Assembly: GCA_036514755.1 (NCBI GenBank)
Contig: DATBWN010000063.1
Span: 1-38,142 of the forward strand
Direction: 5' to 3'
Source: Dehalococcoidia bacterium
Lineage (GTDB): Bacteria > Chloroflexota > Dehalococcoidia > DSTF01 > WHTK01
Length of the DNA: 38,142 nt
The notes beneath the pieces are model-generated. The model had not been told where the DNA came from. It searched no databases and saw only the letters and a list, made by a program, of their open reading frames with translations. Made by a program: the position numbers and the translations under genes. Positions 786 to 28,603 of the stretch are shown piece after piece. How positions within the stretch are numbered: the first letter of the stretch is position 1; the number at the start of each line of letters is the position of its first letter.

Positions 786-862
786 GGGCGATTAGCTCAG
801 CTGGTCAGAGCGTCTGTTTTACACACAGAAGGTCGCAGGTTCGAGCCCTGCATCGCCCACCA
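786..862 (+). tRNA. tRNA-Val (anticodon TAC), CCA encoded
   Basis: Hand-folded cloverleaf. Acceptor stem GGGCGAT/ATCGCCC. D stem GCTC/GAGC. Anticodon stem TCTGT/ACAGA with loop TTTACAC (anticodon TAC at 820..822). T stem GCAGG/CCTGC with loop TTCGAGC. Discriminator A followed by CCA. Confidence 0.9.
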
Positions 863-864
863 AG
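816..864 (+). repeat. att site (left), 49-bp direct repeat inside tRNA-Val 3' half
   Basis: GTTTTACACACAGAAGGTCGCAGGTTCGAGCCCTGCATCGCCCACCAAG is identical to 15571..15619. It runs from the anticodon stem through CCA plus 2 nt. Confidence 0.9.
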
Positions 865-920
865 ACCTAGATTCGATTTGAGGCAAAGGGAAGGCCTTCG
901 GTAGCGTCCTGAGGGCCATT

Positions 921-942
921 TGACGCCAACGCTGACGCCAAC
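921..942 (+). repeat. Tandem TGACGCCAAC x2 (candidate integrase arm-type sites, int-proximal end)
   Basis: TGACGCCAAC-GC-TGACGCCAAC sits ~57 bp inside the left att core. The same tandem is found inside the right end (15414..15435). Confidence 0.55.
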
Positions 943-952
943 CCGCGCAGAA

Positions 953-2080
953 TCAGGCCCTGAGCAACGTCTCCATGGCTTCGACGGCCTGTCGCTGCAT
1001 GGTAGGGGTCACGTGGCTGTAGAGGTCGAGGGTGATGCTGACGCGGCTGTGGCCGAGGCGTTCCGAGACGATCTTCGGATGGATACCCTGGCCGAGCAGG
1101 AGTGTCGCGGCAGTGTGGCGGAGGTCGTGGAAGCGAATCCGCGGGACGCCTGCTTTCGCAAGGAGCGGCTCGAAAGAGCGGCGCCGGAGGTTCGTGTCCT
1201 CAATGGGCTTCCCGACTTCGTTGGCAAAGACGAGGTCGTTGTCTTGCCAAGCTGGACCCTTGAGCAGGCGCTCGGCTGTTTGATTAACCCTGTGACGCCG
1301 AAGTCCGTCGATGGCCAGGCCACCGATGGAAACGTGGCGCCGGCTGCCGGCGGTCTTGGGTTCCGAAATCGTCATGCCTTCCTTCGTCCTTAGAAGCGTC
1401 CCGCGGACAGAGAGGGAGCCCGCGTCCAGGTCAACGTCTCTCCAGCGCAGAGCAAGCAACTCACCGAGACGCATCCCGGTAGTCAGCGCCAGCACATAGA
1501 GAGCCTCTAGGCGGTCTCCCGTCGCGGCATTCAGGAAGCGCCGCGCCTGCTCCGGGTCGAGGGTGCGCATTTCGTGACGCTGAACCCTCGGCGGCGTTAC
1601 CAGGTCGGCGACTTTGCGATGTACTAGGCTCCACCGTGCCGCCTGCTCAAGAGCGCGATGGATTACTGCGTGAAGGTGGCGAACGCTTTGCGGGCTGAGG
1701 CCGGCGGCGAGTCGCTCGGAGTAAAGGCGCTGCAGATGTTGAGGGGTCAGCCGGGAGAGGATCACGCGGCCGATGCCTGGACTAACGTGAAGTCGAATGA
1801 GGCCTTCGTAGGTGACATGTGTCCGGGTCCGTAACGCAGGTTTCGCTGATTCGAGCCAGCTCGCGAGAAACTGAGCGACCGTCTGGCGCTCGTTGACGAC
1901 GGGCAGCCCGTCGCGATGCTTCTTCATGGCGTCGATCAGCTTGCCATTGACCTCCGCCCGCGTCTTACCGAAAAAGTCCTTGCGCTTTCCAATGGGAAGC
2001 GTCATGCGGGCGGTCCAACGCCCGTCCTTGCGCTTGTAGACGCTACCTTCGCCGTTCGCCCGCTTTCTTTCCTTAGCCAT
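953..2080 (-). CDS. int: Tyrosine recombinase / phage-type integrase
   Basis: 375 aa. N-terminal GSVYKRKDGRWTARM (arm-binding-type motif). Catalytic signature LALRWRD (Arg), HDLRHTAATLLL (His-x-x-Arg) and LGHSRVSITLDLYSHV (His, Tyr). Lies 90 bp from tRNA-Val. Confidence 0.92.
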   Translation of the reverse strand: MAKERKRANGEGSVYKRKDGRWTARMTLPIGKRKDFFGKTRAEVNGKLIDAMKKHRDGLPVVNERQTVAQFLASWLESAKPALRTRTHVTYEGLIRLHVSPGIGRVILSRLTPQHLQRLYSERLAAGLSPQSVRHLHAVIHRALEQAARWSLVHRKVADLVTPPRVQRHEMRTLDPEQARRFLNAATGDRLEALYVLALTTGMRLGELLALRWRDVDLDAGSLSVRGTLLRTKEGMTISEPKTAGSRRHVSIGGLAIDGLRRHRVNQTAERLLKGPAWQDNDLVFANEVGKPIEDTNLRRRSFEPLLAKAGVPRIRFHDLRHTAATLLLGQGIHPKIVSERLGHSRVSITLDLYSHVTPTMQRQAVEAMETLLRA

Positions 2081-2101
2081 GATGGCCTCCCTTCTTGGTC
2101 T

Positions 2102-3556
2102 TCAGCGCTTATTCCGAGTCCTGTAGACCCGCTGGTGGTATCGGTTGCTGCATTTCGAGCTGCAGAAGACTTGGTCTGTACGCGTGGGCTCGAAGACTTC
2201 GTGGCACTCCTGGCAGATACGACCACTCGCGCGGTCGTTGAGAATGTCATCGAAGAGCTGGAGCCATGCTGACGAAAGAGGAGTGCGAGGAAGGAAGCGC
2301 AGCCTTGCCTTGCTCCTTCGAAGGTCAGTCTTCCCTATAGTTGCGTCCGGCGGGAAGTAAGAGTGGCCGGCCTGCGGTCGCACGGCTCCGATGTGGGAGT
2401 TGATTAGGTCCTGTAGGTGAAGCTCAGTCCAAAAGATGAGGACGCGATGCGACGGCTTCAGCGGCGCGTACTCGTGGTCAAAGAGCCAGAGCCGGCCGTC
2501 CGGCCTCTTGCGCCAAAGGGACGCGACCACGTCGCTCTTGTCTCCGAGGCGATAGCGACGAAGGGCGTCCCAGATGCGAGCTGCCCTGCGCAGTGCGAGG
2601 GCTTCTTGGAGAATCCAGCCCACGGCGTTGGCGTGTTCGACCTCTGGGTTAGCCGAGAAGAAGTCGGAGTGAAGCCAGTAGAAGCGGTCGCTCACGTAAT
2701 GGTAGAAGGAGTGCCTATAGGAGTCGCTTGTTGGCGGCTCCACCTTAGCCTGTTCGGTCTCTTCCAGGAGCTTCTTCTCCAGCGAAGCCTTCCGCTCCTT
2801 TAGCCGAGCCCATCGCTCGGCAGGGGAAGGTGGGTCAAATCGGAATGGTGTCCCGAAAACACGGAGACCCGGTACTGAAGACGGTACGCGCAGATCGAGT
2901 CCGTCGAGGAGACTCGCCTTCCCGGGCTCATCGTTCGGCGCCGTTACCCCCGAGGGCTCCGAAGCTTCGTCGAGCAGGCCGTCGAAGCTAGCTAGTTCTT
3001 GTTCGACAGCCTCCAGCTCGTCGATTGCGCTCTTCAGCGCGTAAGGAATCTCTATTCGGCCGAACCTGGCTTGGTCGCCAACGCAGTCGCAGCCCGCGTG
3101 CTTGTCCCATTCGAGCAGGCCAAACGCTCTCACGAACTGCTCTGTCAGGGCTACGGCCTTCGTCGAAGGGCTGTAGCAGAGACCAAGCGCTTCGTCTCCG
3201 AGGTCGTCCGTTGAGCAAACACGCTCCGACAGCTCAACTAAGGCCTTGTAGAGGTTCGCTCCGCCGTTCTCTATCAGCAGGTCGAAGCGTTCGCCTTCTT
3301 CGTACGGTGGGTAAACCACAACGATGGGCTCGTCCTTGCCGTGGTCGCCACTGAAACTTTCGATGCGGCACGGGCCACGGTAGGACTTCCCCTCAGCGAG
3401 CCTCGACAGGTCGAGCGAGAACTCTCGCGGCTCCAGGCGGCGATTAGAGCGGCGACGCTTTCGTAAGGGCTCTGTAAGCTCCTGTGATTGATAAGGCTTC
3501 AATAAGGAGTTATCAGCCCCCTCTAAACGGGTCTGCGACTTGCGATCTTCGACCAT
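2102..3556 (-). CDS. Hypothetical 484-aa protein with C-terminal Cys4 zinc-ribbon-like tail
   Basis: Long ORF with non-shadow amino-acid composition. The C-terminus CQECHEVFEPTRTDQVFCSSKCSNRYHQRVYRTRNKR resembles the C-x2-C...FCS-x2-C...YR-x-R tails common on actinobacterial mobile-element proteins. I recognise no other domain. Confidence 0.6.
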   Translation of the reverse strand: MVEDRKSQTRLEGADNSLLKPYQSQELTEPLRKRRRSNRRLEPREFSLDLSRLAEGKSYRGPCRIESFSGDHGKDEPIVVVYPPYEEGERFDLLIENGGANLYKALVELSERVCSTDDLGDEALGLCYSPSTKAVALTEQFVRAFGLLEWDKHAGCDCVGDQARFGRIEIPYALKSAIDELEAVEQELASFDGLLDEASEPSGVTAPNDEPGKASLLDGLDLRVPSSVPGLRVFGTPFRFDPPSPAERWARLKERKASLEKKLLEETEQAKVEPPTSDSYRHSFYHYVSDRFYWLHSDFFSANPEVEHANAVGWILQEALALRRAARIWDALRRYRLGDKSDVVASLWRKRPDGRLWLFDHEYAPLKPSHRVLIFWTELHLQDLINSHIGAVRPQAGHSYFPPDATIGKTDLRRSKARLRFLPRTPLSSAWLQLFDDILNDRASGRICQECHEVFEPTRTDQVFCSSKCSNRYHQRVYRTRNKR

Positions 3557-3568
3557 CGCCTAGATTAT

Positions 3569-3587
3569 GGACGCAGGCGTTGCGTCC
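3569..3587. promoter_or_regulatory. Palindromic operator candidate GGACGCA-n5-TGCGTCC in divergent intergenic region
   Basis: Perfect 7-bp inverted arms lie between the divergent genes 2102..3556(-) and 3620..3802(+), next to TAGATTAT. GGACGC also occurs within the TTGGAC repeats at 6343 and 6430. Confidence 0.35.
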
Positions 3588-3619
3588 GTCAAGCTGCGCC
3601 GAGGTTCTGGAGGAACAGG

Positions 3620-3802
3620 ATGGACGACAAGCTCTTGCTGACGATCCCTGAGGCCGCGCAGCGCGTCGGCCTCGGCCGGAGCAAGCTCTACGAGTTGATT
3701 CAGGCTGGCGACGTGCCGGTGGTAAGGATCGGGCGAGCCGTTCGCATCTCGGCTGAACGCCTGCGCGAGTGGACAGAGAAGCTGGAGCGCGAGCAGGCGT
3801 GA
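3620..3802 (+). CDS. xis: Excisionase-family helix-turn-helix DNA-binding protein
   Basis: 60 aa. LLTIPEAAQRVGLGRSKLYELIQAGDVPVVRIGRAVRI is the typical excisionase/MerR-like HTH_17 pattern. Confidence 0.8.
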   Translation: MDDKLLLTIPEAAQRVGLGRSKLYELIQAGDVPVVRIGRAVRISAERLREWTEKLEREQA

Positions 3803-5919: not shown

Positions 5920-6189
5920 GTTGGGCGCGAGACAGCTCTGCTGGAGCTGCGGCAAGGCGGCAGGTAGTGATCCGGATGGCTGCCTCGCGTGTTACGCGGC
6001 TATTCTTGGAGCGGAGCGCCGGAGAGTGTTGGTGAAGTCAGACTAGAGACGGGCTGAGTTTGACCCGTCAGTCGCAGCTCACTGAAACAGAGTCCGCGTC
6101 GAATGGTCGTTGTATTTGAATCAGCACGGGAGCAACGAGACACGAAGGGCATTCGTGCATCTCGTCTTAGTCAAACTCCTCAACTCGTA

Positions 6190-6435
6190 GTCCAACGTGA
6201 ATGAGTCAAAGAAATCAGAAAAGTATATTAGCCACGCTCATATTTTTGCTCCTACGCTGGTCCAATCGGCCGACGAGAAACCCAGGCAGAGGTACCCGCT
6301 GCCATCCGGCGGGGACGCTTCGCGTCTCGTTCCAGCCACAAGTTGGACGCGGCCGTCTTCGACCTTGCGCGAAGTTGGAGTAGAGAGCAGGAGTTCTTGG
6401 ACCTTCGAGCGCGGGGCGTTGGACTGTAATTGGAC
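6190..6435. promoter_or_regulatory. AT-rich tract plus phased TTGGAC/GTCCAA hexamer array (candidate origin or operator region)
   Basis: GTCCAA at 6190 and 6260. The inverse TTGGAC occurs at 6343, 6397, 6419 and 6430, plus TTGGAG at 6375. Spacings in the right-hand array are 32, 22, 22 and 11 bp. A conspicuously AT-rich stretch lies at ~6197..6250. Confidence 0.4.
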
Positions 6436-6458
6436 GTGCCATCGCTAGCATTGGGCGC

Positions 6459-6677
6459 ATGAAGGTTCAGGACATGGCCACTGAGAGCGCTCTGCGCCTG
6501 CTTCTTACTGTGGACGAGGTGGCCGAGCGCCTGGGATTAGGACGCACTAAGGTCTACGAGCTTCTCGGGCGCGGCGAGATCGCCTCTGTGCGCATCGGAA
6601 CGGCGCGCCGGGTGCCAGCGAGCGCGCTAGAGGCTTACGTCGAGCGGCTCCTCAGAGAACAGAGTGAGAGCGCCTAG
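6459..6677 (+). CDS. Excisionase-family HTH DNA-binding protein (paralogue of 3620..3802)
   Basis: 72 aa. LLLTVDEVAERLGLGRTKVYELLGRGEIASVRIGTARRV aligns position-by-position with the first Xis-like protein. Confidence 0.75.
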   Translation: MKVQDMATESALRLLLTVDEVAERLGLGRTKVYELLGRGEIASVRIGTARRVPASALEAYVERLLREQSESA

Positions 6678-7738
6678 ACTTTGCGGAACCGGCCGTGCTC
6701 CCCGACCAGGCCCCGAGGGCGAACGTAAACGCGCTTGCCCGGCTCGCTAGTGACAGTCCCCAGATCGAAGGCCTTGTAGCCTGTCTTCGCCGCGATCTCT
6801 ATCGTGCGGATGGCATCGGCCTTCGGGACGACCGCGACGAAGCCAATTCCCATGTTGTACACGAGTAACATCTCCTCGTCGGAGATTCCACCGCGCTCCT
6901 GGATCAAGTTGAAGATAGCCGGTGCTTCTGGCAGGCGCTCCAGATTAAACGTCACGTCAGCCTCGACGCGAGCAAGGTTGAGGAAGCCATCGCTGGTGAT
7001 GTGCGCGAGCGCCTTCACGTCCACGGCCGACGCCAGCAGCTCTTTGGCGAAGCGAACGTAAATCGTGGTGGGCCGGAGCAGCTCTTCTCCAACCTTGCAG
7101 CCGAGCTCCGGCAGGTGCTCAGACAGGTTCGGGAGCGCCCTGCGCGCGAGCGTGAGCCCATTGCTATGAACGCCAGAGCTGGCCAATCCGATGATCGCGT
7201 CGCCAGATCGAATGCTCTTACCAGTTATCACGCGGTCCAAAGCGACAGTGCCAATACAGGTGCCGACCAGGTCGAAGCCCGAACCCTCAGACACGCCCTT
7301 GATCATGTCTGGAATCTGGGCAAGTTCGCCGCCAGGGATCGAGATTTCGGCCTGACGGGCACCCTCAGCGAACCCAATGCCGAGCTGCTCTAGTAGGTGA
7401 TCGTCCGGCTTCTCGACGGCGATGTAGTCGACCATGCTGATGGGCGTCGCGCCGACGCAGATTACGTCGTTGACGTTCATGGCGACGCAGTCGATGCCGA
7501 TGGTGTCGAACTTTTCGAGGGCCTCCGCGACGAGGATTTTCGTGCCCACGCCATCTGTCGAGATGGCGATGCCGAGATTAGGTGCAACTGGGATGACATT
7601 GGCGTAGTAGCCGAAACCTATGACGGGCCGGGCGTTCGGGGCGAAGTCGAAAGTGGGCGCGAGGCGCTTCAGGAGCGCCTTGAAGCCTGGCATCTCGTCA
7701 GCCGACTTGACTCCGGCACGGCTGTAGGCGGTCTGCAT
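6674..7738 (-). CDS. PurM-like protein (AIR synthase / PurM superfamily)
   Basis: ISTDGVGTKILVA, GIDCVAMNVNDVICVGATP, IPGGELAQ, GLASSGVHSNGLTLARRAL and VYNMGIGFV match the PurM architecture over the full length. ATG 7738 is preferred (GAGG upstream); the ORF-track TTG start is at 7744. Confidence 0.8.
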   Translation of the reverse strand: MQTAYSRAGVKSADEMPGFKALLKRLAPTFDFAPNARPVIGFGYYANVIPVAPNLGIAISTDGVGTKILVAEALEKFDTIGIDCVAMNVNDVICVGATPISMVDYIAVEKPDDHLLEQLGIGFAEGARQAEISIPGGELAQIPDMIKGVSEGSGFDLVGTCIGTVALDRVITGKSIRSGDAIIGLASSGVHSNGLTLARRALPNLSEHLPELGCKVGEELLRPTTIYVRFAKELLASAVDVKALAHITSDGFLNLARVEADVTFNLERLPEAPAIFNLIQERGGISDEEMLLVYNMGIGFVAVVPKADAIRTIEIAAKTGYKAFDLGTVTSEPGKRVYVRPRGLVGEHGRFRKV

Positions 7739-7740
7739 GG

Positions 7741-8046
7741 TCAAGCCTCGCTGGTGACTCTAATCAACGGCTGCCCAATCTGAACGTCGGCGCCGCAGTA
7801 GGCGGTGAAGCGAACCTGTGCGTCGCCCGGCGCTGTGGCTTCGAATCTAGCAAGGTCACTCTTCGAACCGCGACCCTCGATCTCGAACGAAGAGGGAGAA
7901 AGCACGGCTGGCTCGACTTCGACAACGACTCGCCACGCTTCATCGGCACCGATCCCGTCAATCGACCACTGGTAGACGACTATCTCGCCAATTCCAGCGC
8001 TGCCACGTGGCAGCGCCTGACCGAACGGAATCACGGTGAACCTCAT
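7741..8046 (-). CDS. Small beta-rich hypothetical protein immediately upstream of the PurM-like gene
   Basis: The ORF track gives 7741..8238. Its first 64 codons overlap the IS3 remnant region, so I prefer Met65 (ATG 8046): MRFTVIPFGQ... Its stop lies 2 nt from the PurM-like ATG. Confidence 0.45.
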   Translation of the reverse strand: MRFTVIPFGQALPRGSAGIGEIVVYQWSIDGIGADEAWRVVVEVEPAVLSPSSFEIEGRGSKSDLARFEATAPGDAQVRFTAYCGADVQIGQPLIRVTSEA

Positions 8047-8292
8047 TGGTGAAGCCAGTAACAAGGTTATCAGAGGGGAAGCGTAGTGGACATTGGTCGG
8101 GATTGAAGGAGTAGCTGTGACGAGAAGGCGGCTCACGTAGGCGCCAACGCCTCCAGCGGCCCCGCCATTGCCGTGAAGGTAGTCCTCGGGGCGTGCGTCG
8201 TCAAGATGGCGAGAACGCTTCGGAGGAGAGCTTGACAAGTTGGATTTCTACTCGGCCTCGAATCCGGTGCTCGCTCAGCCTCGTCCATATGT

Positions 8293-8575
8293 CTAAACCC
8301 TGTACACCTTGAGCACTTTGAACCGCCCGGGTGATGGAGACTCGGATCGTTGAGTCCCGGCTCCGGCCGGGATGGGTGCAGGGTACCAGGACGCCTCGTA
8401 CTCCGCCGGCGTGATGGCGACTGCGTCGTACGACGCCTCGGAGGCCCAGGTCGCGCATCAGCCGCTTCACTGTGCAGCGGGGCAACGGCGGTCCCTTCGC
8501 GCTTGAGCTGGCGCGAGAGCTTGCGCACGCCGTAGACGCCGAAGTGCTGAGCGTGCACCTGGCCTACTGCGACTC
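8293..8575 (-). pseudogene. IS3-family transposase (OrfB) remnant, frameshifted and internally deleted
   Basis: Minus-strand frames read ...HAQHFGVYGVRKLSRQLKREGTAVA, then after a frameshift RCTVKRLMRDLGLRGVVRR (OrfB N-terminal HTH region). A third frame reads ...ITPAEYEASWY..., the typical IS3 OrfB C-terminal motif, ending in a stop at 8293. The DDE core is absent. Confidence 0.6.
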
Positions 8576-8580
8576 CAACA

Positions 8581-8885
8581 ATGCCAGCCGGCTACTGCTT
8601 GGTCGCAGCCAGCGTCTCCAACGCCGCGCCAAGCCTCAACCAGACGGTAACGGTGACCGGGACATTGACGTGTGGCGCAGCCGGGGTCGGTGGCGCGCCG
8701 ATGACGGCGACCTGGCACCACCGCACGACCACGTCGACCTGCACGGCGACGAGCGGGCAGAGCGGGGCCGCCTCCTGCAGCAGGTCCATCAGGTCTGCGA
8801 CTCCGGGGTTCTTCGTCCGCATCGACGTCTGCTTCGTTCACGTTGGAAGGCAACACTGCGCCCAGACGGGGTCACGCCCCAGTAG
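8581..8885 (+). pseudogene. 3' fragment of an Ig-like/secreted-protein gene, probable frameshift near the end
   Basis: SVSNAAPSLNQTVTVTGTLTCGAAGVGGAPMTATWHHRTTTSTCTATSGQSGAASCSRSI...FVRIDVCF is protein-like and beta-rich. There is no signal peptide and no plausible start. It abuts the IS remnant. The terminal ...GVTPQ* is in a neighbouring frame (stop at 8885). Confidence 0.35.
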
Positions 8886-9049
8886 GCAATCGCGGTCTCT
8901 CCAGCGCCTCTGCCGTCCAGCCGAAGATCACAAGAGAGGCTCGGAGCCACATGACCTCGTCAGGGGCACGCGCATAGACGCGGTTGTCAGCCACGGCGTA
9001 GACTAGGGCGCGTTGTGCTTTCTTAACAGTGGCTCTGCGAGAAGGCTAG

Positions 9050-10741
9050 ATGTCGGAGCCAAGCAGTCCTAGTAAAGAAAGATCGAGGCACCGGTACTCT
9101 CGGAGAGTCAGTGCCCGCGCAGCCTCTGGTTCTCCGCCCTCATTCTTAACTGATCTCCAGGAGCCTTTCGCATCGAATCCCTTCAGGCTGCTCCGCCTTA
9201 AGGCGGGGGCGTCTGTGGCTGAGATCCAAGTAGCCTTAGCAGAAGCTCGCGTTGCGGCGAGGCTATCAAGCACGCTCGATCCGGAGACAGCACTGGATCG
9301 CGTTCGCCGCGCCCAAACCGAATTGTTGGATTCACCTTCGCGAATACGGCATGCTTCGGCGTGGTTCTACGACCCGCCTAACCTCTTGTTTGCCGGGACT
9401 TTTCAGCCAGACGACGAGGTTCTCAGAGGCTATGAGGAGAGATCCCAGCTTGGTGGTGCCGAAGGAGCGCTTTACTTACATGACGCCGCGAACTGGTATC
9501 TAGCACTGGCGCTTCATGCAGGCAAGCCAGGTCAAATCGAAAGCTTCGCTGCTACTGCACTCGAAAAGTGGGAGCTTTTGCTGTCGTGCCGCGATTTCTT
9601 GGCCACTCAGTCACAGCCAGTTCGATTGTCGCCTAACAGCCAGTCACGATGGCCGGAGCATGTGCTCGGTTCTCTTTCGGCTGCAAATGCTCGGCGGTGC
9701 AGAAACGGTGAAACAGAAAACGTGGTCGCGTGCCTGAACGCACTGCGCGTTTTTGGTTGCGAGCGAGATGAAGTACTTCTGGCTGCAGACGGCGCCTTAA
9801 GTTACCTATCTCAGAAGGTCGCTTCTGGGCTTAGCAATGCGCAGGCCAGCCAAACGGAAACAGTGTCTCTGGCCAATACCCTTGCCGACGATGCCTTTCC
9901 CCTCTTCGAACTTCTAACCGCCCTGGGCGAGGATGCACCCAGTCAATACGCCAGCGTCCTGGATGACGTGTGTTCCTTTTTGCGCGGCATCGCCGTGAAT
10001 CTTCATAACGAAAGAAGCGCCACTCAGACCGCCATTGAAGTCATTGAATGTGCTTTGGATTTAGCGATAGGAGCGACGGAAGAGAAGCTTCTAGCTGACC
10101 GAGCCAACCTTCAGGACCAGCAGAGGCAACAACTCGTGGTTACTGCGCTCAACAACTATGCAGCGCATGTTCAGGAAAAAAGGTGGGACGAAGCGAGCAA
10201 CTCGCTAAGTGAAGCTTCCCGCCACGCGCGCTCGCCCGAAGAATTCGCTTTGGTCCAGGCGGCGAGGAATGCTCTAGAAAAGAGGCGCCGGGGTCTCGTT
10301 GGGGCTTTACGCGGCGTGTTGGGCACCATAGCGGTGATCGGAGTGATCGCGGCCATTCGTTTGGCCGCGAGTTCATCGGACGATGGAACTAGCGCGGGAA
10401 GTTCCCCGGGCTCAGCCCCTCCCGCCATCCAGCCATCCACAAACTCTGAACGAGAGAGACTGGGACAACAGATAGAGTCCAACAAGGCCAGGCTGGCGCA
10501 ACTTGCTGCTCAAGTCGATGGACTCGACAGTCGCCTCAACAGCCTCGAAGCGCAGATGAACTCGATTGTCAGAACCTATGGTGTCGGCAACGCCCTTCGC
10601 GAGCCCGGCTATAGTCAGTACGAATCCCTACGGGCTCAATACAACGGCTTAGTCTCTCAACGAAACACCGTCACTAAGGAATATGACGATCTTCTCTCGC
10701 AGACAAACTTGCTGATAAGCCGTTATAACTCTCTCAGATAA
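9050..10741 (+). CDS. Membrane-anchored coiled-coil protein with N-terminal J-domain-like segment lacking HPD
   Basis: 563 aa. NPFRLLRLKAGASVAEIQVALAEARVAA...ALDRVRRAQTELLDSPSR follows the helix I-III pattern of J domains, but no His-Pro-Asp occurs anywhere. Single TM LVGALRGVLGTIAVIGVIAAIRLAA (KRRRG before it, SSSDDG after it). The C-terminal ~100 aa are heptad-rich (ERERLGQQIESNKARLAQLAAQVDGLDSRLNSLEAQMNS...). Confidence 0.7.
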   Translation: MSEPSSPSKERSRHRYSRRVSARAASGSPPSFLTDLQEPFASNPFRLLRLKAGASVAEIQVALAEARVAARLSSTLDPETALDRVRRAQTELLDSPSRIRHASAWFYDPPNLLFAGTFQPDDEVLRGYEERSQLGGAEGALYLHDAANWYLALALHAGKPGQIESFAATALEKWELLLSCRDFLATQSQPVRLSPNSQSRWPEHVLGSLSAANARRCRNGETENVVACLNALRVFGCERDEVLLAADGALSYLSQKVASGLSNAQASQTETVSLANTLADDAFPLFELLTALGEDAPSQYASVLDDVCSFLRGIAVNLHNERSATQTAIEVIECALDLAIGATEEKLLADRANLQDQQRQQLVVTALNNYAAHVQEKRWDEASNSLSEASRHARSPEEFALVQAARNALEKRRRGLVGALRGVLGTIAVIGVIAAIRLAASSSDDGTSAGSSPGSAPPAIQPSTNSERERLGQQIESNKARLAQLAAQVDGLDSRLNSLEAQMNSIVRTYGVGNALREPGYSQYESLRAQYNGLVSQRNTVTKEYDDLLSQTNLLISRYNSLR

Positions 10742-10756
10742 GGGGAGCAGGTCACC

Positions 10757-11125
10757 ATGGCCGACGATCCCGACGCCTCAGCTCACAATTCCGATAGACT
10801 CGCCGCGATTATTGCGGAGTTGGCGCGAGACATCTGGCGGCTTCATTCAACCGTCGCACGCCTGTCTCAGAGCGGCGAGGCCATGCCAGAAGCTCTTGCT
10901 GCACTGGTGGAGCGTTTACAAGAGGACTTGACAATCAGTGGAATCGAGCTCATCGAGCCCACGGGCCAACCTTACGACAAGAACTCGACCTTTGAAATCG
11001 CTTTCGTGGCCGGGGGCCAAGGTGACTTGTTCATCTCGGAGACGATCACGCCGGGGGTGAGAATCGGAGGGAAACTGGTCGCCAAGCCTAAGGTTGCCCT
11101 CGCAGCAAGGGAGAAGCATCCATGA
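10757..11125 (+). CDS. GrpE-like nucleotide-exchange-factor homologue (short)
   Basis: 122 aa. ISGIELIEPTGQPYDKNSTFEIAFVAGGQGDLFISETITPGVRIGGKLVAKPKVALAARE parallels the E. coli GrpE C-terminus ([24 protein letters not shown]...[22 protein letters not shown]). SD GGGGAG lies upstream. The stop overlaps the next start as ATGA. Confidence 0.6.
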   Translation: MADDPDASAHNSDRLAAIIAELARDIWRLHSTVARLSQSGEAMPEALAALVERLQEDLTISGIELIEPTGQPYDKNSTFEIAFVAGGQGDLFISETITPGVRIGGKLVAKPKVALAAREKHP

Positions 11126-13590
11126 GACAGACGATCGACATAGGCATTGATCTGGGCACAACTAATTCCGCTGTGGCCGTAGTAGACAACGGCCGCCCCA
11201 AGGTGCTGAAGGACGACTATGATAATCAGGAACTTCTCCCATCCTACGTTGCTTTCGGCAGTGACGGGTCGGTTCACTGCGGGAATGCCGCGAGGAACGC
11301 ACTGCTGACTGACCCGGAGAACGCTTTCGAAGGTTTCAAGCGACTACTGGGCACGGCCTGGAGGCGAACGGCGCCGGCAACAGGCGTGTCCTATGGTCCC
11401 GAGGACTTGGCCAGCATCATCCTGCAGGAGCTGAGACGGAGAGCAGCTCAATGGCTGAACAAGGAACCGACGGAAGCGGCCATAACCGTCCCTGCCGTCT
11501 TTGGAGAAGTCGAAAAGCACGCTGTTACCCGTGCGGCCCAGTTGGCAGGGTTTCTCAACGTCACGTTAGTGCAGGAGCCAGTTGCTGCGGGACTTTGCTA
11601 TGGCTGGGACAAAACGTCCGAAGAGCGGCCATTTCTGGTCTACGACATCGGCGGCGGTACGTTCGACGCCTCGCTAATGCAGTGCGTCGGGGGACAACTC
11701 ATAGTATTGGGCCACCTGGGTGAGCACACGCTGGGCGGCCGAGATATGGATGACACGATCGCTGGCCAGATCGTTGCTACTCGTCTCGCCGGAAGGATCG
11801 CACCCGGCGAGCTCAACGAGAAGGCGCTGAGACTGTGCTGTGAGGAGGCGAAGAAGCGGCTCTCAAGTCTACCCTCGGCTCAGATTGCACTCGGTGGGAT
11901 GGTTCGTTCCGTTGACGGCCGAAGCATGGACGATGTCATTCCCATAACACGGGACCAGTTTGAGTCGCTTGTCCTGCCGAAAATCGACCAGACGATAAAC
12001 ATTGTCCTGAGACTGCTGAAAGACGCCGGCGTTGATCCACGCGATTTGGCGTCGGTCATCTTGGTTGGCGGTCCAACTCGTATGCCCATCCTCCGGAGGC
12101 GGCTGGAGGAATCCCTCGGCGCGCCAATACTGACAAAGATCGATCCGATGACAGTCGTGGCCCAAGGGGCCGCGCTCTACGCGGCTTCAATCCTTGGGTC
12201 CGCTCCGTCAGGTGACCGAGGTCAGCAGTTACCACACGAAACGAAGATCAGGCTTGCTTTCGATCCCGTGACGAGTCAGCCCTCTATTCCTGTGGGTATC
12301 GCTGCTGGCGATTCAAGATTCGTAGACGGAACAATGGTCAGGTTTCGGAGGCAGGACGGGTTATGGGATAGCGGTCTCGTGAAGCTGCCGGGCGGCAAAG
12401 GCATCGTGCACGTCATGCTCGCTGATTCGCCGGTCTCCGTCTTCAGTGTGGAGCTATTTGGTCCAGGTGGCGATTCAATTCCAGTGGAGCCGGGTACTTT
12501 CCAGATCACGCGCGGGCTGGCAGCCGCGCCCCCCCCGCTCTCAAGGGCGATAGGCGTCCTCGCAGACAGGCCAGATTCACTCTCGAAAAACGATCGATAC
12601 TCGATCTCGATCATCGCCAGCCGCGGTGAGCCTACGCCTTTCACTCACAGAGCGAAGTTTGTCACGACGAAGCCGCTTGCGCCGGGGTCAATTGAACCAG
12701 TGCTCAACGTGGGCTTCTTTGAAGGCCCTGCTCATGAAGAGAGAACCAATCGCCCAGAGCGGTTTCGCAAGATAGGGGTCGTTCCAATCAAAGGAACGGA
12801 CTTCGAGAGACCGATGCCGGCGGGCACTGAAGTCGAGATAACGATTCGTGTCGAAGCGTCTCACGAGGCTGTGGCCCGCGTCTACGTCCCGTCGATCAGT
12901 AGATACTTTGAAGGCAACTTGCTTGAGTTCGGGCTAGAGGAAACGCCGGTCGCCGAGGAGTTGGAGCTCCGAGTGAACCAGCTGGCGGAGCGTTTGAACG
13001 ACCTTGAAGAGGCTTCGGTCGCCGTAGAGCATTTAAAATCGAGGGTGCTGGAAGCAAGACACGAAATAGAGGCTGCGCGAAGCAGTGGCGCCGACAGTCA
13101 CGCTCGGGCTGTGACCATCTTGGAAAGGATCGAGCTTGAGGCAGATGCCGCAGAGGAGCGAGAAGTGCCGCGTCTCGCCCTCGAAGAGCTGGACGGTTAC
13201 TTGGCCCTCGCCGAAGAGATTGTCTCGAACTACGGCGATCCTGAGCATCTGAGGCGTCTGAACCAGCTGAAGCTAGATGCAGAGCGAGCTCGATCGCGAC
13301 AGGATGTGGAAGAGGCCCGTTCAGTTCGAGGGCGTCTTCTTGAGCTGGTAAGTCTCGTCTATTGGAACCAGCCGGGCGCGTGGGTACAGCGATTCCAAGA
13401 ACTCGCTGCCTTTGAGGGTTACCAGGAACAGGAGAGGGCAAGCGGCCTGATTCAGAGGGGCAGGCAAGCTCTCGAATTGGGGGACATGGACATGCTAAAG
13501 AGGGTAGTGCTCGACTTAATTGGCCTCACCCCGCAAACGACCGAGCCAGGGCCTTGGAGCATGTTTGGCGGAATAGCCAGGGCTAGGTGA
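11122..13590 (+). CDS. Hsp70/DnaK-family ATPase with long divergent C-terminal region
   Basis: 822 aa. Actin-fold/Hsp70 motifs are intact: IGIDLGTTNSAVAVV (phosphate-1), LPSYVAF, FKRLLG, VYDIGGGTFDASL (phosphate-2), VILVGGPTRMPILRRRL (adenosine). After ~residue 360 there is a beta-rich and then a long helical/coiled region that I cannot align by eye to the DnaK SBD. Confidence 0.88.
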   Translation: MRQTIDIGIDLGTTNSAVAVVDNGRPKVLKDDYDNQELLPSYVAFGSDGSVHCGNAARNALLTDPENAFEGFKRLLGTAWRRTAPATGVSYGPEDLASIILQELRRRAAQWLNKEPTEAAITVPAVFGEVEKHAVTRAAQLAGFLNVTLVQEPVAAGLCYGWDKTSEERPFLVYDIGGGTFDASLMQCVGGQLIVLGHLGEHTLGGRDMDDTIAGQIVATRLAGRIAPGELNEKALRLCCEEAKKRLSSLPSAQIALGGMVRSVDGRSMDDVIPITRDQFESLVLPKIDQTINIVLRLLKDAGVDPRDLASVILVGGPTRMPILRRRLEESLGAPILTKIDPMTVVAQGAALYAASILGSAPSGDRGQQLPHETKIRLAFDPVTSQPSIPVGIAAGDSRFVDGTMVRFRRQDGLWDSGLVKLPGGKGIVHVMLADSPVSVFSVELFGPGGDSIPVEPGTFQITRGLAAAPPPLSRAIGVLADRPDSLSKNDRYSISIIASRGEPTPFTHRAKFVTTKPLAPGSIEPVLNVGFFEGPAHEERTNRPERFRKIGVVPIKGTDFERPMPAGTEVEITIRVEASHEAVARVYVPSISRYFEGNLLEFGLEETPVAEELELRVNQLAERLNDLEEASVAVEHLKSRVLEARHEIEAARSSGADSHARAVTILERIELEADAAEEREVPRLALEELDGYLALAEEIVSNYGDPEHLRRLNQLKLDAERARSRQDVEEARSVRGRLLELVSLVYWNQPGAWVQRFQELAAFEGYQEQERASGLIQRGRQALELGDMDMLKRVVLDLIGLTPQTTEPGPWSMFGGIARAR

Positions 13591-14459
13591 AGGGTCCCCT
13601 GCAAGCTGGTCAAGTCATCAATCGCACCTACACGATTGAGGCTCTCGTCGGCACTGGTGCATTTGGTGAGGTCTACCTGGTTTCTCACCGTTTTCTCGGG
13701 CAGCAAGCCCTTAAGGTTCTGAAGGCTGGACCGGAAGCTGGTTTCGAGGATGTTCTAGCAGAGGCGCGACTGCTCGTCGATCTCACTCATCCGAATATCG
13801 TCCGTATCTACGATGCGAACGTCTGTGACGAGTTCGGGAAACCATTCGCATTCATGGCAATGGAATATGCGGAAGGCAGAACTCTTGCCAGCCTGATTTC
13901 CACGAGCATAAGGTTGCCAGATTCAACCGTCGTCTCAATAGGTATGCAGGTAGCTTCAGCTCTTGCGGAGACTCACGCTCGAAACCCGCCACTACTTCAT
14001 CGCGATATCAAGCCCTCCAACGTTCTCATCTTTTCTGAAGTTCATAGCCTTCCCGTTGTGAAGGTCTCGGATTATGGCATGGCCACGACTCTAGATCCCG
14101 AGACTCGCCTTACACGCTCAGCAGGCACGATTGCCTTCGCCCCTCCTGAAATGGCATGGGGCGTTACGGACCAGCGCGGGGATGTCTACAGCCTCGGTGT
14201 AACGCTGTATCGGGCGCTGACTGGAGTTCATCCCTTTCCCTTGACTTCCCCGGAGGAGTTGTCAGCGAGTCGCCAATTTACCCACGTGTTAACTAACGGG
14301 CGAAGGAGCATTGCACCTCCATCAAAGCTCCTCATGCGCCGTTCAAATCAGTTGGACGCCGTTGTAATGAAGTGCCTGGAGTTTGACCTCTTCGCCCGAT
14401 TTCGAGATGGCGCTGAGCTTCTTGGCGCTCTGCGAGACGTGGCGGGTTCCTCTGTGTAG
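13587..14459 (+). CDS. Hanks-type Ser/Thr protein kinase, catalytic domain only
   Basis: 290 aa. GTGAFGEVY (G-loop), ALKVLK (VAIK Lys), HRDIKPSNVL (catalytic loop), SDYG (DFG variant), APPE (APE), DVYSLGVTLY. GTG start overlaps the Hsp70-like stop as GTGA. Confidence 0.88.
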   Translation: MKGPLQAGQVINRTYTIEALVGTGAFGEVYLVSHRFLGQQALKVLKAGPEAGFEDVLAEARLLVDLTHPNIVRIYDANVCDEFGKPFAFMAMEYAEGRTLASLISTSIRLPDSTVVSIGMQVASALAETHARNPPLLHRDIKPSNVLIFSEVHSLPVVKVSDYGMATTLDPETRLTRSAGTIAFAPPEMAWGVTDQRGDVYSLGVTLYRALTGVHPFPLTSPEELSASRQFTHVLTNGRRSIAPPSKLLMRRSNQLDAVVMKCLEFDLFARFRDGAELLGALRDVAGSSV

Positions 14460-14499
14460 CACGCCACGGCGTCGCCCGCTCGTCCTCTTCCTCTGGAAG

Positions 14500-14636
14500 T
14501 GGCACCTGCGGGACGTCTGCCTTCGACGATCTCGTTCGTGATTCCGTCCTCGTCGAAGCGGAAGTGACGTAGAGGCACTCCGCATGGCGAGTTGATGACT
14601 GGGTTCTCGATGATGACCGTCGGGCAACCGATCTCC
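14500..14636 (-). pseudogene. Short N-terminal fragment of a Res-like (type III restriction/helicase-type) protein
   Basis: The minus strand reads IGCPTVIIENPVINSPCGVPLRHFRFDEDGITNEIVEGRRPAG, preceded by a stop. From memory this matches the conserved N-terminus (IENPI-NSPF-EP-RHF-FD-GIT-EIVEGRR) of Res-subunit-like helicases. Similarity is lost after ~40 aa. Confidence 0.35.
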
Positions 14637-14810
14637 TATGCGATGTATCGGCTGGCCGAATCATAAGGCGAACGGCCGCAGACTTAAACTGCCGAACACG
14701 GAAGCGTGTAGGATGGAGGAGTGCTGAAACTACGCTTCGTCCTTACGGCAGGGGCAAGGTCAAGCTTGATGGTCCTCAAGTCCTCAGTTCCAAGGAACAG
14801 GCAGTTTTAG

Positions 14811-15077
14811 ATGAACGCAGGCATTGAAGACAGTGCCGACGAGGAGTCAGACGAGCTACTGTCCTCCGTCCAAGCCGGAATGCTCCTTGGCGTCGGGCCC
14901 GAGAGAATGCGCCAGCTCGCGAACGCCGGTGAAGTGCCGGTCATTCACACACCCCTTGGCAGGCTCTTCCGGATGCGTGATGTGGAGGAGCTGATGGAGC
15001 GGCGCGAAGCTCAGGGAGGTGGGGGGCACTGGCTCGCCCGCTTACCCGCCCGCCTCCGACGTAAGCTCCTCAGTTAG
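14811..15077 (+). CDS. HTH DNA-binding protein (excisionase/MerR-like, divergent third copy)
   Basis: 88 aa. LLSSVQAGMLLGVGPERMRQLANAGEVPVIHTPLGRLFRMRDVEELM. Confidence 0.6.
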   Translation: MNAGIEDSADEESDELLSSVQAGMLLGVGPERMRQLANAGEVPVIHTPLGRLFRMRDVEELMERREAQGGGGHWLARLPARLRRKLLS

Positions 15078-15092
15078 GAGGCACGACTGGGC

Positions 15093-15362
15093 GTGGCGTC
15101 GCACCCCACCATCGAGGCGCACCAATTCAGGCCAGGCGAATCAGGCAATCCTAAGGGCCGGCCTCCGACGCCTCTATTTATTCCTGCCCTCCGCCGCTTT
15201 GGCGTCATGCGTCGGAGCGACTTCGACGAGGTAGACATTTGGAAGTTGAAGGCAAGGGAGGCGATAGCATACAGGCTGTGGCAGCTCGCCCTTCAGGGCG
15301 GCGCGCAAGGATTACGCGCGACGAGGCTGCTGGCGGACCTACTCGATGGCCCCATCAGGTAG
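15093..15362 (+). CDS. DUF5681-like small protein
   Basis: 89 aa. The FRPGESGNPKGRPP motif is characteristic of DUF5681 proteins of phages and islands. AGGAGG lies 11 nt upstream of the GTG start. Confidence 0.55.
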   Translation: MASHPTIEAHQFRPGESGNPKGRPPTPLFIPALRRFGVMRRSDFDEVDIWKLKAREAIAYRLWQLALQGGAQGLRATRLLADLLDGPIR

Positions 15363-15413
15363 CCGAGATGCCTATCGCCGAGAAGCAGATCAACCTGGCG
15401 GGAGCGCCATGAT

Positions 15414-15453
15414 TGACGCCAACGTTGACGCCAACCTGTGCGGCTGACGCCAC
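15414..15453 (+). repeat. TGACGCCAAC x2 plus degenerate third copy (candidate integrase arm-type sites, distal end)
   Basis: TGACGCCAAC-GT-TGACGCCAAC at 15414..15435 and TGACGCCAC at 15445..15453, ~120-155 bp inside the right att core. Same orientation as the left-end copies. Confidence 0.55.
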
Positions 15454-15570
15454 CGGCGATGAACGACGGCGAACAATAGGATTCGTGCGAGGTCTTGTTT
15501 CAGATTCAGGAGCGGACGGTTATGGATGGTAGCGGGCGGTGGCGACTGGAGCCGTCCGGACTCCGCATCG

Positions 15571-15619
15571 GTTTTACACACAGAAGGTCGCAGGTTCGAG
15601 CCCTGCATCGCCCACCAAG
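15571..15619 (+). repeat. att site (right): displaced partial 3' half of tRNA-Val
   Basis: 49/49 identity to 816..864. The upstream sequence cannot form a D arm, anticodon stem or acceptor 5' strand, so this is not a functional tRNA. Confidence 0.9.
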
Positions 15620-17610: not shown

Positions 17611-17790
17611 CGCCTGAGCGGGCCCGTTTTGGAAGAGGGTCGCGGGCGAAACCTTCGCGCCGACGGCGAAAAGCGCCGCGAGAAAGGCGCGCCGCCGGAG
17701 CCGGCGGCCGACGGAGCGTCGCCGGCCAGGGCTGGGCCGGCCGAGCTGAAATGAAAGGGTAGCAGTGGGGAATGCTCGCTTGCCGAAGAT

Positions 17791-28577: not shown

Positions 28578-28603
28578 GAAGGCCGGACTTAAGTCTGGCC
28601 TTC
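28578..28603. terminator. Hairpin GAAGGCCGGACTTAAGTCTGGCCTTC between convergent genes (copy of 26..51)
   Basis: 25/26 identity to the palindrome at 26..51. It sits between the malic-enzyme stop (28501) and the VapC stop (28603). Confidence 0.45.

Follow-up and report, generated by a model that had tools for sequence, protein, structure and literature searches.

A tRNA-Val island of Dehalococcoidia with its own excision and replication genes, a putative helper-dependent element with candidate defence cargo

Mobile elements that depend on a helper have been grouped as a ‘hitcher’ class (PMC11389934), and the core that defines phage-inducible chromosomal islands (PICIs) comprises an integrase, a regulator, a primase-replicase, capsid morphogenesis, and a small terminase (PMC10085698). 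In the same scheme, an integrase, an AlpA protein, and a primase alone make up an ambiguous ‘Type C’, and PICIs of the SaPI (Staphylococcus aureus pathogenicity island) type are also without a capsid-morphogenesis gene (PMC10085698). The phage-inducible chromosomal minimalist islands (PICMIs) of Vibrionaceae have three core proteins for excision and replication, no capsid-remodelling genes, and defence cargo (bioRxiv 10.1101/2023.07.18.549517). Among conjugative elements, the domain DUF3631 corresponds to RepAM, which initiates the replication of pMEA300, an actinomycete integrative conjugative element (AICE), and AICEs were found only in Actinomycetales in a survey of 2011 (PMC3218068). Here, we analyse a 14.8-kb island integrated at a tRNA-Val gene of a Dehalococcoidia bacterium (Chloroflexota), on contig DATBWN010000063.1 of assembly GCA_036514755.1. 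This contig of 38,142 nucleotides was analysed whole and is called the window below; it belongs to a 2.1-Mb metagenome-assembled genome (MAG) that is 82.5% complete. Wherever the neighbours of the contig's malic enzyme are named, they come from Dehalococcoidia. By analogy with PICIs and PICMIs, we read the island as a helper-dependent integrative replicative island of their type, with a phage as the most likely helper, a reading to which we give an even chance of being correct.

The 14.8 kb is an insertion, present in one and absent from other strains that are more than 99% identical, since two independent metagenome contigs (Ga0209108_10000190 and Ga0209520_10026256) hold the empty site and align with both flanks. 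These contigs were found by an exact-pattern scan of metagenome contigs with the junction of attR and flank, and in both the tRNA-Val gene is joined directly to the acyltransferase gene, which is the arrangement that an initial annotation of this DNA, made from the sequence alone, had proposed looking for. Positions 1-864 of the window are 99.8% and 99.3% identical in the two contigs, the sequence from 15620 onwards, joined directly to the left flank, is 99.3-99.6% identical, and the 49-bp core sequence is present once in each. A four-way alignment gave the expected picture, an empty site composed of the left side of attL joined to the right side of attR. Synteny searches of 40 related species-level genomes yielded no empty site, the genus being too divergent (flank protein 49-67% identical, acyltransferase paralogues about 50%, no synteny downstream of tRNA-Val).

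The boundaries can be read to the base. A direct repeat search recovered the perfect 49-bp repeat over the 3′ half of tRNA-Val that the initial annotation had described, and its two copies are spaced 14,755 bp apart, the length of the island. They lie within a 55-nt repeat of 96% identity with two mismatches, at 812 and 815, and the perfect part begins at nucleotide 31 of the tRNA, in the anticodon stem/loop, and extends past the encoded CCA by 2 nt. Also as first annotated, the stop codon of the acyltransferase gene lies 2 nt from the end of the right copy. Two explanations by which that annotation would have stood corrected do not apply: duplication of the tRNA gene is ruled out by a repeat that covers only the 3′ 49 nt of tRNA-Val, and a block fixed in relatives is at odds with the presence of DUF3631 in 0 of 17 same-genus genomes. 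The lower G+C content of the interior, at first judged by eye, is confirmed by computation: the island has 60.8% G+C against 68.2% and 69.2% in its flanks and 69.1% in the MAG, lies below 57 of 57 same-sized MAG windows, and its genes have a third-position G+C content (GC3) of 0.55-0.84 compared with 0.90-0.97 in flanking genes. The cargo operon described below has the lowest GC3 of the island (0.55-0.65; backbone 0.70-0.84). The island is present in a single copy in the MAG, and that the region is an integrated mobile element is as good as certain. A 94-nt ‘tRNA-Gly’ called by ARAGORN at 15524-15617 was rejected as a chimera of island DNA and the 3′ half of tRNA-Val, without Rfam support.

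Table 1. Features of the tRNA-Val island and its insertion site, in window positions
Feature	Position	Strand	Basis or remarks
tRNA-Val(TAC), integration target, regenerated by insertion	786-862	+	ARAGORN; Rfam RF00005, 72.9 bits
attL, perfect 49-bp core repeat at the left end	816-864	+	tRNA nucleotide 31 to 2 nt past CCA
Candidate left arm-type integrase/excisionase sites	921-942	+	Two exact TGACGCCAAC copies, 12 nt apart (921, 933)
Tyrosine integrase, 375 aa	953-2080	-	PF00589 2e-24; PF14659
ORF484, 484 aa, conserved backbone protein	2102-3556	-	C-terminal CxxC...CxxxC (FCS-like) zinc ribbon
Sigma-70-like promoter, TTGACG-17-CATAAT	3564-3592	-	63-bp divergent gap ORF484/xis; consensus match only
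Excisionase (xis)/AlpA-like HTH_17 protein, 60 aa	3620-3802	+	PF12728 1.9e-12; weak Phage_AlpA match
Primase/replication initiator, 716 aa	3769-5919	+	N-terminal Zn finger, Toprim, DUF3631 (RepAM-type), C-terminal Zn ribbon
Candidate replication origin or operator	6047-6458	.	TTGGAC/GTCCAA hexamers and AT-rich stretch
Second HTH_17 DNA-binding protein, 72 aa	6459-6677	+	PF12728 2.4e-14
purM (AIR synthetase), island-borne accessory gene	6674-7744	-	TIGR00878, 316.5 bits (cut-off 236)
ORF upstream of purM, 165 aa	7741-8238	-	4-nt overlap with purM; no family match
Possible IS3-type transposase remnant (HTH_21 fragment), between purM module and cargo operon	8133-8558	-	PF13276 3.4e-4, below cut-off; weak
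Four-gene cargo operon, candidate defence system	9050-14459	+	Stops/starts overlapping or closely spaced
ORF563, 563 aa, cargo operon gene 1	9050-10741	+	
ORF122, 122 aa, cargo operon gene 2	10757-11125	+	
Hsp70-like protein, 822 aa, cargo operon gene 3	11122-13590	+	HSP70 1.5e-77
Hanks-type Ser/Thr kinase, 290 aa, cargo operon gene 4	13587-14459	+	Pkinase 2.2e-39; HRD, DYG, APE motifs
Third small HTH_17-like protein, 88 aa	14811-15077	+	PF12728 3.3e-4 (below cut-off); phrog_66 1.4e-5
DUF5681 protein, 89 aa, candidate small-terminase-like packaging factor	15093-15362	+	PF18932 5.1e-11
Candidate right arm-type sites	15414-15454	+	Two exact TGACGCCAAC copies, 12 nt apart (15414, 15426), and a one-mismatch copy
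attR, perfect 49-bp core repeat at the right end	15571-15619	+	Direct repeat search
Acyltransferase gene, 662 aa	15622-17610	-	PF01757

The gene content is consistent with an island that would be excised as a circle by its integrase and HTH_17 excisionase acting at phased arm-type repeats (Table 1). The catalytic set of the integrase is intact (R204, H318-x-x-R321, H344, and Y354). The exact TGACGCCAAC decamer occurs four times in the 38-kb window, all four copies lying within about 160 nt of the island ends, and its doublets are laid out like arm-type integrase sites, making them candidates for that role. ORF484, encoded divergently from xis and the primase gene, occupies the position of the PICI master repressor and by that position is likely to be a regulatory switch; the only promoter-like site detected between 800 and 15700 lies in the gap between the divergent genes. 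Family matches of ORF484 are limited to a weak NinG/HNH-type zinc ribbon (Pfam and PHROGs), in the Atlas its neighbours are hypothetical proteins, of which some carry zf-FCS or CGNR fingers, and its AlphaFold2 (AF2) model, with a pLDDT of 48.7, is too poor for structure search. The zinc ribbon is invariant across the three ORF484-type proteins compared, from the window and from the sister elements G442 and G487 described below.

Replication of the excised island would fall to the Toprim-DUF3631 protein, acting from the adjoining hexamer array and AT-rich region. The protein matches PF12307 (2e-58) and, across residues 107-295, PHROG 239 ‘DNA primase/helicase’, and its homologues in Dehalococcoidia are 46-58% identical over nearly the full length. 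In the gap of about 410 bp that follows the primase gene, 6 of the window’s 15 copies of the TTGGAC/GTCCAA hexamers fall within 246 bp (6190-6435), and at 6188 lies the 60-mer with the highest A+T content in the window (33% G+C, the lowest value); from these features, the gap is a candidate replication origin or operator. As far as comparison of sequences goes, the replicase family does not separate conjugative from phage-related elements, because DUF3631 occurs in both a Streptomyces AICE and a Pseudomonas phage-derived record. The former is a 13.5-kb plasmid (NZ_CP108827.1) that encodes a 40%-identical DUF3631 protein together with an integrase, a helix-turn-helix (HTH) protein, Prim-Pol, an FtsK/SpoIIIE Tra protein, spdB, and a GntR regulator. 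The latter, a prophage-like record, is the only one among GenBank phages to match the primase, and only in its DUF3631 half; its annotators noted the likeness of this protein to Rv2655c. The best match of the integrase in IMG/VR is 34% identical.

The island belongs to a family with members in other Dehalococcoidia. Among 400 other genomes of the class, 19 hold primase homologues at E <= 1e-30, with nine of these matches spanning both the Toprim and DUF3631 parts, and within the host’s order DUF3631 is sporadic (4 of 92 other genomes). Four sister elements are bounded by perfect repeats at tRNA genes: G442 (14,943 bp; tRNA-Lys(TTT), 49-nt repeat), G487 (12,178 bp; 5′ half of tRNA-Arg(CCT), 40-nt repeat), G505 (6,353 bp; tRNA-Arg(TCG), 43-nt repeat), and G610 (6,551 bp; tRNA-Gln(CTG), 37-nt repeat). 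All four share the primase, and three of the four also share the integrase and the HTH_17 excisionase, the integrases of sister elements being 42-59% identical to that of the window. The G442 element follows the window in both order and orientation, with integrase (59% identical), an ORF484 homologue (36-39% over the aligned parts), xis, and primase (50%), and the G487 element holds an integrase (45-46%), an ORF484 homologue, xis, a primase (58%), and purM (50%). The G505 element has an integrase (51%), xis, a primase (53%), a second HTH_17 gene after the primase gene, and an unmatched 291-aa open reading frame (ORF) at the position of ORF484, and in the G610 element the primase (55%) is accompanied by a different integrase (28%), with no excisionase homologue detected. 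The ORF484 homologue, adjoining the integrase gene, was thus detected in G442 and G487 only, and these two elements also carry 12-nt-phased doublets at both ends, each with its own motif (YTGCTGTCA and TGGCTGTCA). When the islands of the window, G442, and G487 were compared in full, they shared no genes beyond those for integrase, ORF484-type protein, excisionase, and primase (and purM between window and G487).

The remaining space is a variable cargo slot, which in G487 holds a type I restriction-modification (R-M) system consisting of HsdR (ResIII and EcoEI_R_C), HsdS, and HsdM, and in G442 a type III-like pair of ResIII helicase-nuclease and N6_N4 methylase, along with DUF4268 and TnsA-like nucleases. 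Neither structural genes nor genes for FtsK/SpoIIIE, spd, relaxase, or coupling protein were found among the Pfam-scanned ORFs of the sister elements. The kind of element is known, and yet this Dehalococcoidia family appears to be undescribed in the literature searched, as does the combination that sets it apart, in which a replicase of the Toprim-DUF3631 type and an FCS-type Zn-ribbon protein in the place of the repressor go together with phased arm doublets, hosts among the Dehalococcoidia, and R-M or Hsp70/kinase cargo. The Toprim-DUF3631 replicase is also present in a different genomic context, as full-length homologues, 46% identical, occur in four complete genomes of the class of 1.4-2.1 Mb (G109, G735, G073, and G061; loci L100-L103). 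Within 20 kb of these genes there is no tRNA, long direct repeat, or close integrase homologue, with a 26% partial match in L100.

In the window, the cargo slot is filled by an operon whose third and fourth genes encode an Hsp70-like protein and a kinase. This operon is probably a defence system, judging from its position and distribution, because sister elements hold R-M systems in the equivalent slot. The kinase matches the PADLOC models PD-T4-6 and MAD6, both of defence kinases, and ORF563, ORF122, and the Hsp70-like protein have no PADLOC match. The C-terminal, non-chaperone half of the Hsp70-like protein is sporadic in the phylum, with matches in only 3 of the 400 other genomes searched, in each case near a kinase gene and/or an ORF122-like gene, and homologues of about 815 aa are widespread elsewhere, for example in Myxococcota. 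No Hsp70-containing defence system was found in the literature searched. The variable slot would thus provide the host with anti-phage defence. The HTH_21 ORF to the left of the operon may have been left behind when this lower-GC3 cargo was acquired.

No purM other than the island-borne copy was detected in the incomplete MAG. The island copy has 38-42% identity with purM of its own genus and 52-62% with the chromosomal copies in three genomes that belong to other genera of the order (one from the host’s family, two from another family), where the gene stands in ordinary chromosomal contexts. A 50%-identical purM is found at the equivalent relative position of the G487 element (L091:7723-8829). 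These chromosomal relatives and the G487 copy suggest, from sequence similarity, that the island family acquired purM within the host’s order and retained it. We can only guess at its role, which may be to support nucleotide supply during replication.

Near the right end, the DUF5681 gene stands where PICIs have their small-terminase gene. In phage MW202647.1 (Terminase_3 TerL) and in a prophage-like region of a genome from the host’s order (G454, contig C32; Terminase_6N/6C TerL), the gene of a DUF5681 homologue lies directly upstream of terL and overlaps it. In Salmonella phage STGO-35-1, with its genome re-oriented to begin at terL, the DUF5681 gene comes last, likewise directly upstream of terL and overlapping it, and its product was detected in the virion proteome (PMC8954984). 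This is the canonical position of a small-terminase gene, and by analogy the island protein is a candidate small-terminase-like factor. Thirteen of 29 DUF5681 homologues match phrog_26239, and a confident DUF5681 AF2 model (pLDDT 84) has phage DUF5681 proteins as its structural neighbours in BFVD. Foldseek searches of the model against PDB and VIA-wide gave weak helical matches only (E >= 2, Z <= 4.2), which are uninformative, and a profile search against PDB gave no match. With tblastn against phages, the island protein and two homologues had no match and a third homologue led to a terL-adjacent match; a word-indexed protein search returned only the query itself. The prophage-like region of G454 (locus L094, 2162-16178) holds a phage metallopeptidase gene, the DUF5681 gene overlapping the Terminase_6N/6C terL, and then ORFs of 651, 739, and 1618 aa, and exemplifies a kind of phage that could serve as a helper.

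To look for transfer functions, 20 ORFs of the island, most of at least 60 aa, were scanned against Pfam and 10 of them also against PHROGs, other short overlapping ORFs being left out. No capsid, portal, tail, or large terminase gene was recognised among them, nor any holin or capsid-morphogenesis gene, and there was likewise no match to the FtsK/SpoIIIE (PF01580), Tra, or relaxase families in scans with Pfam, PHROGs, NCBIfam, and PADLOC. The initial annotation had reported the same lack of virion genes, and every item in its gene list (int, the Zn-ribbon ORF, xis, Toprim/DUF3631, a candidate origin, cargo, and DUF5681) is found in the sequence, including the replication module that it named, with a Toprim-DUF3631 gene and an adjoining hexamer array and AT-rich region. 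Its remark that such islands carry defence cargo gains support from the R-M systems of the sister elements. Since neither virion genes (capsid, portal, tail) nor genes for a large terminase, FtsK/Tra, or a relaxase were found, the island probably cannot move between cells alone and needs a helper. With intact-looking excision and replication functions and no transfer function, its gene set fits the ‘hitcher’ class. When the PICI criteria were compared by hand with the island, using the SatelliteFinder definition and the family matches, an integrase, a regulation module (HTH_17), a primase-replicase, and the absence of tail and holin genes were in agreement, and capsid morphogenesis was lacking. 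For the small terminase, there is no Pfam or PHROG terminase match, and the DUF5681 family lies upstream of terL in three genomes.

Whether the helper is a phage is evenly balanced. A phage is favoured on account of the PICI-like gene order, the precedent of PICMIs, and the phage-associated DUF5681 family, and it would carry the island between cells with DUF5681 at the small-terminase position. Several results weigh against this. IMG/VR holds no relative of the primase, whose RepAM family is known best among conjugative elements of actinomycetes. Neither Phage_capsid nor TerL_ATPase, the only two families searched for a helper phage, has a match in the incomplete MAG. The absence of a recognised capsid-morphogenesis gene counts on the same side, as do several properties of DUF5681: its small-terminase role is argued solely from gene position, no solved small terminase was found that matches it in sequence or fold, the island protein is short (89 aa compared with about 105-160 aa in homologues), and none of the sister elements tested has such a gene, so that the family as a whole does not share it. 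For the Hsp70/kinase operon, the defence role is likewise argued from position. Missing packaging genes as such are no argument against a satellite, because proven PICMI satellites are also without them.

The same observations can be read differently. The island could be a plasmid-like integrative replicon without a dedicated helper, transferred occasionally by generalised transduction, vesicles, or transformation and kept for its useful cargo, with DUF5681 as an incidental gene or a remnant. Such a replicon would explain why only recombination and replication genes are common across the family, why DUF5681 is short and unique to the window member, why the members of 6.4-6.6 kb have no recognisable hijacking gene, and why sizes of 6.4-14.9 kb show no packaging constraint. 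Yet the occurrence of perfect repeats at five different tRNA genes in different genera argues for frequent and recent transfer between cells, and purM, being nearer to copies of other families of the order than to those of its own genus, indicates that the element has moved between lineages; the missing packaging genes do not discriminate here, since PICMIs lack them as well. We consider this reading unlikely, if still deserving of attention. Somewhat less probable again is an integrative mobilisable element (IME), that is, a stripped relative of AICEs that kept int, xis, and RepAM, lost the FtsK-like Tra protein, and is mobilised in trans, via a cis-acting clt or oriT site, by a conjugative element that shares the cell. 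It would account for the kinship of DUF3631 with RepAM of pMEA300 (PMC3218068), for the similar block of int, HTH, DUF3631, and Prim-Pol genes in the 13.5-kb Streptomyces AICE, and for the nearest primase C-terminal halves in a species-representative genome collection, which come from MAGs of Actinomycetes/Gaiellales; elements with an oriT only do exist (PMC11389934). However, no FtsK/SpoIIIE, spd, relaxase, or coupling-protein gene was detected in the island or among the scanned ORFs of its sisters, the host belongs to the Dehalococcoidia and not to the Actinomycetales to which AICEs were confined in 2011 (PMC3218068), int is divergent from xis and the replicase gene as in PICIs rather than part of a co-directional block as in the Streptomyces AICE, and the only transfer-linked gene, that of DUF5681, is phage-associated. 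The organisation first described as satellite- or IME-like is borne out in its replication module and its lack of virion genes, and between satellite and IME the gene order and the DUF5681 gene lean towards a phage helper.

Decay into an immobile state, either of a prophage or of a fixed genomic island, is very improbable. The absence of structural genes and the possible insertion sequence fragment at 8133-8558 would agree with it, and other tRNA-Val islands of the genus hold metabolic genes and no detectable integrase. Against decay stand the perfect 49-bp repeats, the intact catalytic residues of the integrase, the uninterrupted backbone ORFs, and the presence/absence polymorphism among strains more than 99% identical. 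Moreover, three sisters with related integrase and replicase are also without structural genes among their scanned ORFs, and repeated decay to the same state is not expected.

The tRNA-Val site is an integration hot spot in the genus. Five same-genus genomes (G005, G004, G011, G006, and G017; loci L038, L040, L041, L042, L051, and L053) have tRNA-Val(TAC) with a partial copy 4.6-18.8 kb downstream, and these copies begin at a matching tRNA position (about nucleotide 33). The DNA between is of lower G+C content and encodes CoA-transferases, HpaB, a thiamine pyrophosphate (TPP) enzyme, a Rieske oxygenase, and a histidine kinase. No relative of the window integrase was found there by tblastn, and 0 of 10 larger ORFs sampled from five loci match an integrase family. 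In spite of the similar crossover point, these islands were rejected as instances of the same element, having metabolic genes and no related integrase; they are older residents, possibly immobilised. Elsewhere in the window, about 95 bp of the spacer that separates the acyltransferase gene from the next one (17690-17784) are replaced by 8 bp in one empty-site contig (L060, 8992-8999), a second small strain-level indel in a contig that is otherwise 99.4% identical. A palindrome resembling repetitive extragenic palindromic (REP) elements, AAGGCCAGACTTAAGTCTGGCCTT, is present at 25-51 and 28578-28603, and the MAG has 10 copies of its 22-nt core, spread over many contigs.

It is tempting to speculate that the Dehalococcoidia elements are a family of phage satellites, built from int, a Zn-ribbon regulator, xis, and Toprim-DUF3631, that shuttle defence between lineages, with DUF5681 as a small terminase redirecting the packaging of the helper, the Hsp70-like/kinase operon as a new anti-phage system, and purM as a supplier of nucleotides. 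This extended scenario is a doubtful one, and if it were true, a small-terminase function would be the first role assigned to DUF5681. The recurrent position of the DUF5681 gene just upstream of terL in any case provides a testable function for this domain. Known R-M systems in the cargo slot of two members similarly give good grounds for regarding the Hsp70-like/kinase operon as a candidate new defence system. Most Dehalococcoidia are uncultured, and with boundaries, attachment site, arm sites, and empty site readable to the base, the integration system could be rebuilt in a model host. An island of integrase, excisionase, primase, and cargo is of a known kind, and the surprise is moderate.

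How the island relates to known systems depends on which of its modules is compared. By AICE criteria (PMC3218068), it has the integrase and the RepAM module and lacks an FtsK/SpoIIIE Tra gene. AICEs of the pMEA300 type resemble it in their tyrosine integrase, HTH excisionase, DUF3631/RepAM protein, tRNA-type integration, size of about 13-15 kb, and excision followed by autonomous replication, but they carry FtsK/SpoIIIE Tra, spd, and a GntR/Kor regulator, all of which the island is without, and the absence of Tra and spd genes rules out an AICE. The replicases also differ, Toprim being fused to DUF3631 in the island and Prim-Pol being a separate gene in the AICE, as does the host phylum. Mycobacterium elements of the phiRv2 type are similar in being small and tRNA-linked and in having an integrase, an HTH excisionase-like gene, and a DUF3631 protein (Rv2655c). 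They also encode capsid, prohead protease, and terminase, which the island does not.

PICIs such as the SaPIs and EcCICFT073 are closer in architecture. Like the island, they are integrated elements of about 15 kb without tail or holin genes, and the order of their genes is that of the island: int, then at the repressor position a gene that points leftward, alpA/xis and primase-replicase genes in divergent orientation, ori, cargo, and a small gene at the terS position. The island differs from them in its Toprim-DUF3631 replicase and in having a 484-aa Zn-ribbon protein, rather than an Stl or cI-like protein, at the repressor position. It also has no recognised capsid-morphogenesis gene, its small-terminase candidate is a DUF5681 protein proposed by position only, and any induction of the island by a phage is putative. 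Its host is a member of the Dehalococcoidia, in contrast to the satellites of a 2023 survey, which were mostly from Proteobacteria and Firmicutes, with some from Actinobacteria (PMC10085698). For PICMIs, helper dependence has been shown experimentally, that of the island is inferred, and the likeness between them is one of description and not of protein comparison. In this sense, PICMIs share with the island a core of integrase, AlpA-type regulator, and primase, and the G505 and G610 elements, at 6.4-6.6 kb, are similarly minimal.

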